Assembly: GCA_963590525.1 (NCBI GenBank)
Contig: CAVAPV010000004.1
Location: forward strand, 1,465-65,464
Direction of reading: 5' to 3'
Origin: Agathobacter rectalis
GTDB lineage: Bacteria > Actinomycetota > Coriobacteriia > Coriobacteriales > QAMH01
Length of the DNA: 64,000 bases
Each line of letters opens with the position of its first letter. The first letter of the stretch is position 1. Made by a program: the position numbers and the translations under genes. This document shows positions 31,793 through 50,459 of the stretch, piece after piece. The notes beneath the pieces were generated by a model, which saw nothing but the letters and a program-made list of their open reading frames with translations, was not told where the DNA came from and did not search any database.

Positions 31793-31869
31793 TGGCACCC
31801 CCAACGGGATTCGAACCCGTGATCTCCGCCGTGAAAGGGCGGCGTCCTAAACCGCTAGACGATGGGGGC
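31793..31869 (-). tRNA. tRNA-Glu (anticodon UUC), CCA encoded
   Basis: Minus strand: GCCCCCATCGTCTAGCGGTTTAGGACGCCGCCCTTTCACGGCGGAGATCACGGGTTCGAATCCCGTTGGGGGTGCCA. The cloverleaf arms pair, and the anticodon loop is CTTTCAC. Confidence 0.95.
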
Positions 31870-45906: not shown

Positions 45907-45997
45907 CAGCAAGCAGCAAGCAGCAAGCAGCAAGCAGCAAGCAGCAAGCAGCAAGTAGCAAGTAGCAAGTAGCAAGTAGCAAGTAGCAAGTAGCAAG
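45907..45997. repeat. 13-copy heptanucleotide tandem array, (CAGCAAG)7(TAGCAAG)6
   Basis: Counted directly. Seven CAGCAAG units run from 45907 and six TAGCAAG units run from 45956. The array is intergenic, between the hpf terminator and the Hbd-like gene. Confidence 0.95.
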
Positions 45998-46000
45998 TAG

Positions 46001-46036
46001 CAAGTATGAAACCAAAAATCCCGCCCCTCGTTGAGG
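46001..46036 (-). terminator. Strong intrinsic terminator of hpf
   Basis: Minus strand: UCCCGCCCCUC aac GAGGGGCGGGA followed by UUUUUGGUUU. Confidence 0.85.
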
Positions 46037-46163
46037 GGCGGGACATTACCGGCTTATAAAAGAGTCTCGCATCGCGCTAGGTCAGCTGATCTGACCGCTT
46101 TCGACGGTTGCGAATACGCGTCAAACCTCACTCAAGCATGAGGCCCAAGCAACATGCCTCCCG

Positions 46164-46751
46164 TTACTCCTTGTAGCCAACAACCTTGGGCTGGATGATG
46201 CCATAGCCGCCATTGGAACGATGATAAACAACCTGCACCTGGTGAGTGTCTTGGTCGAAGTAGACATAGAAGTCATGACCGAGAAGGTCAGTCTGGACCA
46301 ACGCACGCTCCATGGTCATAGGCTCGATCTCGATCTCCTTCATGCGGACCAGAAGATCGTCATCATCGCCGACTTCCTCGACAGGGGGAAGCTCGATGCT
46401 ATCGATCTCTTCTACAGCCATGCTCTTGATCGTGCCGCGGCCGCCGCGACGATCAACAACCTTGGTCTTGTACTTGCGCAGCTGGCGAGCCACCTTATCT
46501 GCAGCCGCATCGATTGCGGCATACATGTCGTCCTCAGACTCGCTCACGCGAATCACTGCACCTTTAGCGTGAACAGTGACCTCGCAGGTATTGGACTTGG
46601 GGTTGGCAGGGTTATGAGCAGTTCTCAAAACAACCTCTGCGTTCATCGCAGCGGCCTCAAACACCTCAAGAGAGCGCCCGATCTTCTCTTCTACGTAATC
46701 CCTCAGCGCCGCGGTAACGGTGGTCTTGCGTCCGGTAACTGTGATGCTCAT
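46164..46751 (-). CDS. hpf: Ribosome hibernation promoting factor, long form
   Basis: MSITVTGRKTTVTAALRDYVEEKI...YAAIDAAADKVARQLRKYK... plus a C-terminal dimerisation domain ..MTMERALVQTDLLGHDFYVYFD... Confidence 0.9.
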   Translation of the reverse strand: MSITVTGRKTTVTAALRDYVEEKIGRSLEVFEAAAMNAEVVLRTAHNPANPKSNTCEVTVHAKGAVIRVSESEDDMYAAIDAAADKVARQLRKYKTKVVDRRGGRGTIKSMAVEEIDSIELPPVEEVGDDDDLLVRMKEIEIEPMTMERALVQTDLLGHDFYVYFDQDTHQVQVVYHRSNGGYGIIQPKVVGYKE

Positions 46752-46841: not shown

Positions 46842-47789
46842 CTACTCCTCTGCTGCTTCTGCCTTCGTGTCAGTTGTTGCCGATGCCCCAAAAGAAGAAG
46901 GCAGGGACTCCTCATCAAGAGAGCCGGCCATAAGCGTGGAGCTTTGGCTTCCAAGCCACTTTGCGGCAACCACATCAAGAGAGCCATTGGTTGTCATAGC
47001 CTCTACAGCTTGGTTAACCGCAGTAGAAAGCTGCTCGTTTGAAGAAGCCGTAACCGCGTAAACAGGCGACACGTCGTTGGCGCTTAGAAAATCAACTCGA
47101 ACGATGTCTGAGTAATCGCGCGAATAGTAATCGCCAACAACGGCATCGGCAACAAAGTAGGTGTAAGAACCGTTCTCAATTGCCTCAAACGCCTCTTGAA
47201 CCGTGGCAACAGTATCTACAGAGTCTATTCCCAGTGCATCTTGAATCTCGTACGCGGCGGCAGAAGACTCCTGCACAAGCGTTTTCTCTTTACTCAAGTC
47301 GATAGAAGAAACGCTGTCCGGCATGTTTTTAACAAGGCAAAACAGGGAGGCGCCGTCATTTATGTAAGCGCTCGTGTAATTGAGGTCTTTGTTGCTGCCG
47401 CTTTTTACCGCACCCAAAGCAACATCGACTGTGCCGTTAGTCACCGCGGTTTTGCCATCGGTGCCAACGTCAACGATCTTGACCTTGCAGCCAAGCTCGT
47501 CTGCGAGGGCTGCGGCAACATCGACATCAAAACCAATGGTCTCACCGTTGGCATTGGTTCCACCATACGGGGATTTGTTTGCATTGACGCCCACTGTGAG
47601 CACACCGTCTTCGATGACAGAACCAGCAGGCAAGGTAGATGAAAGCTGCACGGCAGGATCTGTATTGGAGACGATGCCCAAGGTGCTTTCTACTTGAGAG
47701 CAAGCGCACAAGGCACTCAGAGAAGTGACGCACAGGACAGCTGCAAAGGCGCTCGCCATCACTTTCTTGGTAAAGGCTCGCTTTGCCAT
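46842..47789 (-). CDS. Amino-acid ABC transporter substrate-binding lipoprotein (family 3 SBP); no adjacent permease or ATPase
   Basis: Lipobox LCAC. ..LTVGVNANKSPYGG..GFDVDVAAALADELG... RBS GGAGG. Confidence 0.75.
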   Translation of the reverse strand: MAKRAFTKKVMASAFAAVLCVTSLSALCACSQVESTLGIVSNTDPAVQLSSTLPAGSVIEDGVLTVGVNANKSPYGGTNANGETIGFDVDVAAALADELGCKVKIVDVGTDGKTAVTNGTVDVALGAVKSGSNKDLNYTSAYINDGASLFCLVKNMPDSVSSIDLSKEKTLVQESSAAAYEIQDALGIDSVDTVATVQEAFEAIENGSYTYFVADAVVGDYYSRDYSDIVRVDFLSANDVSPVYAVTASSNEQLSTAVNQAVEAMTTNGSLDVVAAKWLGSQSSTLMAGSLDEESLPSSFGASATTDTKAEAAEE

Positions 47790-48083
47790 CCGTACCTCCA
47801 GAGCAATTCAAAAAGGTCCAGTTGGAACTCCTCCCAACTGACCTGGTATTTGACCCCACACTCGCGCACTGGAACTTTTGCTTCGGCCGCGGTAATCCAC
47901 GACCCCACTTAAGGTTCTCTCGCCCCGGGGACCCTTTGTCCCCTATCAAAGGCGGTGCGTCTTACCCCTAGGACGCGCCATGCTCGCCGAGCCGTCAAGC
48001 CCGACTTACGTGGATCCTTTTGACCGCGTCTGCCTTGGACTAAGGAAGCTTATGTCTTCCCGCAACCACAGACTTGGGAGGAG
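47790..48083 (-). promoter_or_regulatory. ~290-nt structured leader with an intrinsic terminator and a long-range anti-terminator pairing (class not recognised)
   Basis: Minus strand: an extended -10-like TGcTACACT lies near 48090-48100. The leader 5' end CUCCUCCCAA (48083-48074) is perfectly complementary to UUGGGAGGAG (47837-47828) inside the terminator GGUCAGUUGG gaggaguu CCAACUGGACC + U5 (47843-47810). Several internal hairpins are present. GUGGGGUC is repeated twice. Confidence 0.5.
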
Positions 48084-48239
48084 CTAAAGAAAGTGTAGCA
48101 CAGCAAAATGCGCGCCCCTCATGCGTCAACAAGCCGACACCCCCGGCCCCGTGTTCATAGAAACGTAAAGGTCGCACAAGGTTGCAAGAGAGAATCACCA
48201 GGCAGCCGATAGGAAAACTCGCGCCTTGATGAGGGCCGT

Positions 48240-49172
48240 CTAGATAGGGCTGTTGAGAAGCGACTGCGCAAGGGAGAGGTAGACTCCGTCTGGCTCGAAA
48301 AGCCAAGTGCCGATGTCTCTCACCATCACTGTGAGGGGATAATCGCGCCCTTCTAGCTTGAAATGCTTAAATCCCATCTGGACAAGCTCTTCTATACGCT
48401 GAGCCGATATGAGGCTGTTGACCAACGGTGCATCGTGCCTGCGCTGCAGGCACTCGTTGTTGATCTGCACCAGCTTGCCCTCAAGACGGCGCTGAGCAAT
48501 GAAGTTGCCCGTGCTTGCGGCGTTGGCTGCCAGCGTCTGTGTCATGTAGTGATCCTTTGACAAGGGGCAGTTGGGACGACAGCGATGATTGACGATGAAC
48601 TCGACTCGGTCGGGATGCTCGATTTGCGTGAGGTAGCTGTCATCGTTTGCAAAGGCACTGTTGACCACGACGATGTCGTAGCGCTTGAAAAGCTCGTTGT
48701 AATACGACGGCGGTTCCTGACCGAGCCTGTTTTCCACCGTTGGCTTGACCAGCGAGCTTATCAGTTGGAGCTTAGGATAAGCAGAACGTATGTAATCGGC
48801 CAAAAGATCGTTAGCGACGATGACGCCGTTATTGTCAGAAAGATTCAGCCGCTCAAGCAAGAAATTGCTCTCGGGGTCATCTAAATCCTGCTCTGTTATC
48901 TCGGTATTGCTAAACGTAAGGCGGCAGCCTACCTGCAGCTGAGCATAGCGATCAAAAACCTCGCACACGTTGTCCTTGTCAAAAACCAAAGGCGCAGCGC
49001 GGCCTCCCTGAAACGCGCAGGACACGCTTCCAAAGACGTAGTCGATGGGAAACTTGATACCTTGGCGCTGGCAAGCCTGAGCCAACAAAAGGGCATAGCC
49101 GTCATGGGCAAACATGACACCCACGTTGAAATCGCAAGAGCCTATATAGTCTCTAAAAACCTTTTGGGTCAT
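48240..49172 (-). CDS. Hypothetical protein (310 aa), family not recognised
   Basis: Clean ORF with good codon bias. It is the last gene of the purB-TSCPD-lipoprotein string. Contains ..FIVNHRCRPNCPLSKDHY..FKHFKLEGRDYP... Confidence 0.5.
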   Translation of the reverse strand: MTQKVFRDYIGSCDFNVGVMFAHDGYALLLAQACQRQGIKFPIDYVFGSVSCAFQGGRAAPLVFDKDNVCEVFDRYAQLQVGCRLTFSNTEITEQDLDDPESNFLLERLNLSDNNGVIVANDLLADYIRSAYPKLQLISSLVKPTVENRLGQEPPSYYNELFKRYDIVVVNSAFANDDSYLTQIEHPDRVEFIVNHRCRPNCPLSKDHYMTQTLAANAASTGNFIAQRRLEGKLVQINNECLQRRHDAPLVNSLISAQRIEELVQMGFKHFKLEGRDYPLTVMVRDIGTWLFEPDGVYLSLAQSLLNSPI

Positions 49173-49190: not shown

Positions 49191-50459
49191 TTAGCTGATA
49201 TCCACAAGCTCTATGGAACGTACTTCGACCTTGCGCGTGGTCTCGCCTTTTTTGACTTGGGCCACAGTCGCGTAGTTATACACCTTGCCTTCCAGCTCTC
49301 CGGTCGCAATACTAAAGTCGCCGTAATCCTCGGAGCCATCTGGCGCGCTGACGGTAAAGTAGCGTTTGCCCTTCATGTCCACAAAGACCGTGCGGCCAGA
49401 GCTCTTGCAAAACACCCAGCCAGCCGAGCTTCCTATGGGTGTGACGGGAGTCCTGGTCAAACGCAGCCAAGTGCCATCGCCAGCCGCAACATACGTGCCA
49501 ACGCTGGCGATGCCGTCTCCGTAATCGTAGCCAGCCGATATGCCAAAGCTAAAAGCACCGTTGACATAGGTAAAGGTATTGGGGCGAAACCCGTGCGGCA
49601 AAACCTGCGATGCAACCACGCCGCTGCCTTGTATAGCCGTGAGCTGATAGTAGACAGAGGACCGGTTCTCGTGTCTGGGCATGCACACCAAGCTCTTGCC
49701 GCTCGTATACAAGCCGCCGTTAAACCTACCGTGGCTTGTATAAGCAATCCCACCGTTAGTCTTAAGCAGAGAATCCTCGCTTGTCTTGGAGCCGTCTTCT
49801 GCAGGTTGGACAATCCAATAAGCTTGAGAATCTACAACGGCAAGCTCTGGCACGTCGTAATCGGCACCGCCCTCGTCAAGCAACGTAGCCTCGCCCACGC
49901 TAAGCGCGTCGGCATCGATTGAAGCGCTGTAGAGGCGCCAGTCGTCTGTGAGATAGTTGCACTCGACCCATAGCAAAAGACTGTCGCTGCAACGAGCCTC
50001 GTGGATCACGAAACCAGTATCCTTGCCTTGGGCCTCTTGAAGCGCGGTCTCGTAACGCCCCGACTCAAGCCCCATCAAAAAGACCTGGGTAAGTGTACGG
50101 GACGTGCTTCCGGGAGCGGTGGCGCAGGCGATTTTGGAACCGCTTGCAAAAAGCTGCGTGCCGACATCCAAATCGATGACGGATTCCACCGTGCAGTACT
50201 TGCCCGTGCTCTTTATCTCCTTGAAGCTCTCCAAGGTCGTCACAGACTCCGTTGCCACCTCTAGCACATCGGGAGCAGCAGACGAGCTGCCAGAGCTGCA
50301 ACCGCTTGCAACAACAGCGGCGCTCACGGCAGCCACTGCAGCCGCACCTGCCGCAGCGCCGGGAATGGCACCGAGAAGGTCGCGTCGGGTGATAGGCGCA
50401 GATGCAGCAGCTGCGATAGGAGACGCTGCAGGCTTGTTGTTCTTGGGATTGGCAGACAC
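49191..50459 (-). CDS. Tat-signal lipoprotein of unknown function (beta-rich, propeller-like)
   Basis: ITRRDLLGAIPGAAAG... twin-arginine motif, then the lipobox VVASGC. Confidence 0.6.
   Translation of the reverse strand: MSANPKNNKPAASPIAAAASAPITRRDLLGAIPGAAAGAAAVAAVSAAVVASGCSSGSSSAAPDVLEVATESVTTLESFKEIKSTGKYCTVESVIDLDVGTQLFASGSKIACATAPGSTSRTLTQVFLMGLESGRYETALQEAQGKDTGFVIHEARCSDSLLLWVECNYLTDDWRLYSASIDADALSVGEATLLDEGGADYDVPELAVVDSQAYWIVQPAEDGSKTSEDSLLKTNGGIAYTSHGRFNGGLYTSGKSLVCMPRHENRSSVYYQLTAIQGSGVVASQVLPHGFRPNTFTYVNGAFSFGISAGYDYGDGIASVGTYVAAGDGTWLRLTRTPVTPIGSSAGWVFCKSSGRTVFVDMKGKRYFTVSAPDGSEDYGDFSIATGELEGKVYNYATVAQVKKGETTRKVEVRSIELVDIS

Follow-up and report, generated by a model that had tools for sequence, protein, structure and literature searches.

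Which RNA lies in front of the solute-binding protein gene of this locus, and does the hairpin at the 3' end of this RNA influence whether the gene is transcribed? The window, by which we mean the whole 64-kb stretch of DNA that was analysed, carries a gene for a family-3 solute-binding protein (SBP) of 315 aa (46842..47789, minus strand; Pfam SBP_bac_3, E 3.8e-19), whose product is probably a lipoprotein as judged from an inferred LCAC lipobox, and no permease or ATPase gene adjoins it. A GGAGG ribosome-binding site (RBS) was read from the sequence 5 nt before its ATG at 47789 (47795..47799, minus strand), and the gene is followed by one for a long-form ribosome hibernation factor RaiA/HPF of 195 aa (46164..46751, minus strand), which matches both Ribosomal_S30AE (E 3e-26) and Ribosom_S30AE_C (E 7e-20). 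The first-pass annotation had described a long structured leader upstream of the SBP gene, in which a closing helix and a terminator exclude each other, and had taken it for a riboswitch, T-box or attenuator of unknown class. All of its coordinates and sequences could be verified. From its interpretation the conserved structured RNA and the two exclusive helices stood, both helices being evolutionarily supported in the clade, whereas neither a T-box nor a known metabolite riboswitch is present and the RNA is the raiA motif, also known as ModT.

The raiA RNA, its closing stem and its putative promoter

A scan of the window with Rfam placed a full-length raiA-motif (ModT) structured ncRNA (RF03072) at 47829..48082 on the minus strand, with a score of 163.8 bits against a gathering score of 101.3 (E 3e-41) and with model positions 1–209 of 209 covered, and we regard the identity of the element as a raiA RNA as virtually certain. 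It is present as one copy in the 64-kb window, where the sole other Rfam match is a tRNA gene (31796-31869, minus strand). A search against Rfam had been named in the annotation as the way to check its idea, and a permissive cmscan of positions 47700-48250 showed no match to the T-box model (RF00230) at E ≤ 1 and, among the metabolite riboswitch models of all Rfam, none other than raiA even at E ≤ 1. A weak match to the gyrA RNA model inside the raiA RNA (47938-48011, minus strand; 18.1 bits, threshold 45, E 0.11) was treated as chance. As cmscan returned raiA alone next to this chance-level hit, a T-box or other riboswitch identity was ruled out. Since raiA RNAs have been described upstream of genes with RaiA and periplasmic-binding-protein domains in Firmicutes and Actinobacteria (Weinberg 2017, PMC5737381), both the family and the context are known, and the central proposal, a leader or riboswitch of a new class, fails. 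The RNA resembles the published raiA/ModT RNAs (RF03072; Weinberg 2017, Soares 2024, Lence 2024, cryo-EM 2026) in the match to the full model, in the 9-bp P1a, in the GGUCAG and UGGGGUCAAA cores, in the UAG..GUAAG linker and in its position upstream of periplasmic-binding-protein and raiA/hpf genes in Actinomycetota (Coriobacteriia).

The residue-level alignment to RF03072 also accounts for the hairpins and repeats that had been noticed in the interior of the leader. GGAAG/CUUCC corresponds to the variable P2 insertion of raiA, and GGGGAC/GUCCCC as well as the GUGGAUUACCGCGG segment are variable peripheral raiA hairpins, so that the resemblance of GUGGAUUACCGCGG to a T-box core, for which no T-box model match was found, did not survive. 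The GCGUC/GACGC pair is not a hairpin at all: in the family consensus these letters belong to two different helices flanking the single-stranded UAG..GUAAG linker. The duplication of GUGGGGUC is indeed there, with its second copy being the near-invariant UGGGGUCAAA core of the known raiA family. Nor is the leader strictly free of ORFs, as mechanical ORFs of 49–135 aa overlap it, although without evidence of coding.

For the comparison with relatives we took three close ones from genome contigs, found by a search with the SBP, and 14 contigs with SBP homologues of 35–76% identity; the clade set comprises 17 SBP-linked loci in nine lineages that are not fully independent of each other, and a broad sample of 120 metagenome loci with the raiA 3' core was added. 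A raiA RNA scoring 139–165 bits, above the gathering score in every case, was found in all SBP-linked loci, so that the objection of missing conservation, which the annotation had raised against itself, falls away. The core sequences GUCUGUGG, the UAG..GUAAG linker, GCGAGUGUGGGGUCAAA and CCAGGUCAG are all present in the window and invariant in the 17-locus alignment, and the segments that would form the pseudoknots Pk1 and Pk2 and the compact tertiary core known from cryo-EM are conserved in sequence, pseudoknots being scored neither by the Rfam model nor by ViennaRNA.

The perfect 10-nt complementarity between the beginning of the leader (CUCCUCCCAA, 48083-48074) and a segment near its end (UUGGGAGGAG, 47837-47828), which had been read as an anti-terminator, turned out to be the P1 stem of the family. 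According to the RF03072 alignment the CU-rich, anti-Shine-Dalgarno-like 5' strand of P1a (UCCUCCCAA, 48074..48082, minus strand) pairs with the 3' strand UUGGGAGGA (47829..47837, minus strand), that is model positions 1–9 with 201–209, and the latter strand is common to P1 and the alternative hairpin described below. All 9+3+5 pairs of P1a, P1b (CUG/CAG) and P1c form in the window, P1 can be extended by three further pairs to 48085/47826, and the duplex amounts to about −20 kcal/mol. Across the 17 related loci 94.7% of the cells are paired and seven pairs changed on both sides, compared to 33–54% paired in slid controls. The length of P1a is strictly conserved in the family, and P1 has been speculated to undergo a functional conformational change (2026 cryo-EM, PMC12968392). 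A peculiarity of composition may be added here: in all 17 SBP-linked loci the 5' strand of P1a is polypyrimidine (UCCUCCCAA, UUCUUCCAA, UUCUUUCGA and others) and the 3' strand polypurine, the two resembling anti-Shine-Dalgarno and Shine-Dalgarno sequences, while P1a of other raiA RNAs is mixed and GC-rich, as in CGCGUGCGG.

The extended −10 element proposed upstream of the leader is conserved. It was read from the sequence as TGCTACACT (48092..48100, minus strand), and its TG.TA.A is invariant, 8–10 nt before P1, in all 17 SBP-linked loci, with SBP identities ranging from 35 to 100%; the fuller form is (C)TGTGCTAnACT (alignment columns 37–50). No −35 hexamer could be recognised across the 17 loci, and a simple two-hexamer promoter scan reported nothing in the region. 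The invariant element at this distance fits an extended −10 promoter with transcription starting at the base of P1, the start being predicted 7–8 nt downstream of the −10.

The alternative hairpin and its evolutionary support

The terminator-like hairpin at the 3' end of the RNA (47815..47843, minus strand) and the U5 tract directly 3' of it (47810..47814, minus strand) lie where the annotation had placed them, and they were also flagged by a mechanical terminator scan of low specificity (11 sites versus 3.3 expected). The hairpin consists of GGUCAGUUGG (47843-47834), the loop GAGGAGUU and CCAACUGGACC (47825-47815; CCAACU(G)GACC) with one G bulged, and folded alone it reaches about −16 to −17.3 kcal/mol. 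Its 5' arm covers model positions 195–204 and is thus made of the conserved GGU, of the P1b CAG and of four P1a nucleotides, with the remaining 5 nt of the P1a 3' strand sitting in the loop. Because the conserved GGUCAG and the beginning of the P1 3' strand are tied up in it, the hairpin excludes P1, and the mutual exclusivity of closing helix and hairpin that had been suggested could be confirmed. Two mutually exclusive helices with a common strand, both evolutionarily supported, constitute the architecture of an attenuator or expression platform.

The evolutionary support for the hairpin comes from a locus-background test, in which the 15 nt of GGUCAG plus the P1a 3' strand were folded with the next 24 nt and the result was set against folds of these 15 nt with all remaining 24-nt windows of the locus. 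The resulting p values were uniform for 110 other raiA RNAs (median 0.51; KS p 0.44), showing no signal of hairpin complementarity there. The window itself gave p 0.003 and its group a lineage median of 0.007, followed by L060 (0.003), L136 (0.018), L129 (0.026), the lineage of L132 and L138 (median 0.046), L127 (0.066) and L133 (0.12). No hairpin is formed in L134 (p 0.22) and in the lineage of L135 and L137 (median 0.42), so that it is missing from three of the 17 related loci, corresponding to two of the nine lineages. Five of the nine lineages are below 0.05, and the Fisher combination of all nine is 5e-6. This test replaced counts of the MFE overlap between GGUCAG plus P1 and the downstream segment, which were dropped as they do not discriminate in high-GC sequence, where shuffles already pair about 8 of 15 nt.

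The hairpin recurs in at least six related lineages with differing 3'-arm sequences, namely CCAACUgGACC, CCAGCUcGACC, CCAGCUGGUC, CCAcUGGCC, UAACUGAUC, GUGACUGAUC, CGGCUGGUC and UCGACUGAC. Almost all substitutions in this arm preserve pairing, and many of them lead to G-U pairs (positions 196, 197, 201 and 203). As the 5' arm is almost invariant, most of the support derives from one-sided changes. Three-way covariation was seen at position 202, where a U that faces A both in P1 and in the hairpin has become C in L127 and L136, with G as either partner, and at position 204, where a G that faces C in both helices has become A in L060, with U as either partner. RNAalifold recovers only the inner six pairs of the hairpin, and column-based pair counting of the whole hairpin fails because the bulge shifts the MAFFT columns; the substitution table was drawn from per-sequence folds. 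Taken as a pattern of sequence change, these data make it likely that the hairpin is a selected RNA structure.

Constrained folds, in which pseudoknots and the tertiary contacts that stabilise the native fold are ignored by the nearest-neighbour model, place the P1 and hairpin states within about 3 kcal/mol of each other in most hairpin-bearing lineages, so that the two are nearly isoenergetic, and favour P1 by 2–9 kcal/mol in the three loci without hairpin. When successive transcript lengths were folded at equilibrium, P1 was predicted to form first (P about 0.97) and to be still dominant while the polymerase is on the U-tract, with the hairpin predicted to win only once more downstream sequence is available. 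The early formation of P1 during transcription corresponds to an anti-terminator-by-default logic, and the folding model suggests that transcription normally reads through and terminates only if P1 is kept from forming or is opened.

Possible roles of the hairpin

Being followed by U5, the hairpin of the window should act as a relatively weak intrinsic terminator, and termination at this site is plausible in the window genome. The U-tract was found in this genome only; among the relatives the hairpin is followed by UUUCGAAU, UUCUGGAU, UUGAGCAA, GACGAGG and the like. Compared over 130 raiA 3' ends, the window is also the only one with a hairpin and U-tract starting deep inside the RNA, at −16, whereas the terminators of 13 low-GC raiA genes start at −1 to +6 and abut P1, as is also the case in C. 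difficile, with two weaker cases at −7 and −8. Canonical U-tract terminators are used elsewhere by the relatives, as seven of 11 loci have one downstream of hpf (−21 to −31 kcal/mol). Since the relatives keep the hairpin without a U-tract despite these canonical terminators after hpf, its conserved role is probably not canonical termination, and the reading of the conserved hairpin as a canonical terminator was rejected for the relatives.

For the window we lean towards a raiA ncRNA gene whose hairpin is a weak terminator competing with P1 and thereby setting transcription into SBP and hpf. In such a model transcription of a raiA ncRNA gene of about 254–260 nt would begin at the base of P1, driven by the conserved extended −10 promoter, and the segment just 3' of raiA would pair with GGUCAG and the beginning of the P1 3' strand, an interaction that could not coexist with the closing helix. 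With the hairpin formed, transcription would end near 47810-47805 and free raiA RNA would be released; with P1 closed in the native fold, the hairpin would be barred and the polymerase would run on into SBP and hpf. The fold of raiA would in this way be its own anti-terminator and determine how much free ncRNA is made relative to SBP-hpf mRNA. The parts of this model that we infer are termination at the U-tract, a common transcript with SBP and hpf, and any dependence on a ligand, a protein or the growth state. As to its separate steps, we would put an attenuating terminator that sets read-through into SBP-hpf in the window at slightly less than an even call, and a response of the switch to a ligand or partner of raiA seems rather unlikely. 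Equally doubtful to us is the wider proposal that in this sub-lineage of Coriobacteriaceae raiA/ModT is also a cis-acting sensor, with P1 as the true switching helix for the expression of the SBP and the hibernation factor, where the folding of raiA or its occupancy by a ligand, KhpA-KhpB or another partner would decide via the hairpin.

A competing explanation would be a stand-alone raiA gene with its own terminator, in which the overlap with P1 is without regulatory meaning, the released RNA refolds, SBP and hpf are expressed independently and the hairpin merely ends or protects the transcript. Such a gene would agree with the trans action that raiA has in both C. acetobutylicum and C. difficile (PMC10861870, PMC11706538), with the terminator that many raiA genes have right after P1 and with the proposal that the terminal stem of the long isoform in C. 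difficile stabilises the RNA (PMC11706538). However, the other raiA terminators abut P1 without invading it, a persisting hairpin would destroy the GGUCAG/P1b contacts and so inactivate the mature RNA, and the hairpin is kept without a U-tract in relatives. In addition, raiA ends 32–50 nt before the SBP start codon in all 17 loci, too short a distance for a separate promoter outside the RNA gene; an SBP promoter might be hidden inside the raiA gene and would count against the attenuation model. We consider such a stand-alone gene, with a hairpin that only ends or protects the RNA, rather unlikely. That the hairpin is conserved without a U-tract would be explained by a translational switch, in which the hairpin frees the CU-rich P1 5' strand (GCUCCUCC) to pair with the SBP Shine-Dalgarno sequence and block initiation, while closed P1 leaves the RBS free. 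This pairing does appear in constrained folds, where the hairpin state lowers the mean unpaired probability of the RBS at 15 of 17 loci (about 0.5 versus 0.36), and P1a has kept its CU-rich composition throughout the clade. The change that the folds predict is small, though, and takes no account of the tertiary structure; 280 nt separate the two partners; and the P1 5' strand is no more complementary to the RBS of the SBP gene than to ordinary RBSs from the same genomes (median p 0.38). As this gives no specific support for a translational mechanism, specific anti-SD/SD sequestration by the P1 5' strand was rejected for want of a signal above ordinary RBSs, and we consider translational control quite unlikely.

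Less probable still is the leading idea of the first-pass annotation, a classical metabolite riboswitch or T-box that senses an amino acid or tRNA for the binding-protein gene. Rfam does label RF03072 as 'Cis-reg; riboswitch', a terminator hairpin competes with the structured domain, and the gene that comes next is that of an amino-acid-type SBP. Against it stand the cmscan result, in which no T-box or known riboswitch model matched even at E ≤ 1, the finding that raiA RNA bound no small molecule in vitro (PMC5737381), and the fact that elsewhere raiA precedes hpf or unrelated genes and acts in trans (PMC10861870, PMC11706538). Finally, the inverted repeat GGTCAGTTGG...CCAACTGGACC near the start codon might be a DNA operator for a dimeric transcription factor. 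The changes from Watson-Crick to G-U pairs at positions 196, 197, 201 and 203 keep the RNA pairing and break the DNA palindrome, a pattern which points to selection on the sense-strand RNA, and one half-site is fixed by the raiA core in every raiA RNA. The operator was rejected on this G-U substitution pattern, and we give it hardly any credence.

Comparison with known systems and gene neighbourhood

The preferred model, in which the hairpin competes with P1 as a weak terminator, has to be seen against the literature on raiA, which is among the most widespread and abundant bacterial structured RNAs without an assigned biochemical function. RaiA/ModT is very abundant and trans-acting in C. acetobutylicum and C. 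difficile (PMC10861870, PMC11706538), and the field has concluded that it has no expression platforms and acts only in trans: the authors of the genetics in Clostridia argue against a cis role and find expression platforms "typically not associated" with the RNA (PMC10861870), and Weinberg 2017 had already doubted a cis role and did not find small-molecule binding in vitro (PMC5737381). What distinguishes the clade of the window from the known raiA motif is its conserved downstream segment, which pairs with GGUCAG and the P1 3' strand. Some species form a longer raiA isoform ending at a terminator attached after P1 (PMC11706538), and ModT(L) of C. difficile, C. perfringens and P. sordellii is similar to the window RNA in having a terminator hairpin immediately 3', making two transcript lengths possible. 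The extra stem there follows P1 and leaves the shared fold unaltered (PMC11706538, PMC12968392), whereas the window hairpin starts 16 nt inside the RNA and excludes P1. The terminating platforms of purine and SAM-I riboswitches are alike in that the P1 3' strand is the 5' arm of the terminator, followed by a U-tract and the RBS, but in the window the place of the sensor is taken by an RNA that is known as trans-acting, and the U-tract is not kept in relatives. With T-box leaders the RNA has in common a long structured Gram-positive leader before an amino-acid-related gene and the alternative of terminator and anti-terminator, yet it lacks a T-box model match, Stem I, a specifier loop and the T-box sequence.

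With respect to the literature searched, the new element is thus the lineage-specific and evolutionarily supported hairpin competing with P1, the RNA family and its context being already known. If raiA were a cis-acting sensor, this orphan class would gain in the hairpin its first natural expression platform and a direct read-out for finding what the RNA senses, and a conserved hairpin opposed to P1 before hpf-linked genes would be an experimentally simple handle on what opens or closes P1. If it were only a structure of the transcript end, the locus would represent one more member of a known family.

The raiA-SBP-hpf unit is closed by a strong canonical intrinsic terminator (46008..46044, minus strand) with a 12-bp stem of nine G-C pairs and a U-tract (−23.3 kcal/mol). 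The order of SBP followed by HPF is kept in most relatives; the Gordonibacter-type loci L135 and L137 are without HPF, and upstream they carry a ComFC-like gene in the opposite orientation. An upstream comFC is typical of the raiA family, and none is adjacent to raiA in the window. That the next gene follows raiA closely does not set this locus apart, as such spacing is common in the broad sample: judged from longest-ORF starts, which are approximate, a same-strand ORF starts at most 60 nt from raiA in 37 of 96 other raiA RNAs, often for HPF or SBP, and the first downstream ORF encodes HPF in 35 and SBP in 14 of 100 cases. Many high-GC raiA RNAs (L005-L124) lie only 20–100 nt before an hpf or SBP gene, in contrast to the published generalisation that the ORF is usually hundreds of nucleotides away, and these short distances imply that co-transcription of raiA and hpf may be common in Actinomycetota.

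Upstream of raiA the window carries a gene of 310 aa (48240-49172, minus strand), which is without a Pfam match and syntenic in the closest relatives (L125, L130), preceded by a second gene of 422 aa (49191-50459, minus strand), likewise without a Pfam match; in more distant relatives the position of the 310-aa gene is held by an RlmL-type methyltransferase. A contig deposited as part of an Akkermansia muciniphila bin (L002, CAVCDT010000006.1) bears a Coriobacteriaceae-type raiA-SBP locus with an SBP 86% identical to that of the window and is probably a contaminant of that bin. Between the hpf terminator and the next gene, which encodes a 3-hydroxyacyl-CoA dehydrogenase (45771-44830, minus strand), lies a tandem array of the heptamer AGCAAGT (14 copies, 98% matches, 45908-46006) that may be a phase-variable or slippage-prone spacer.
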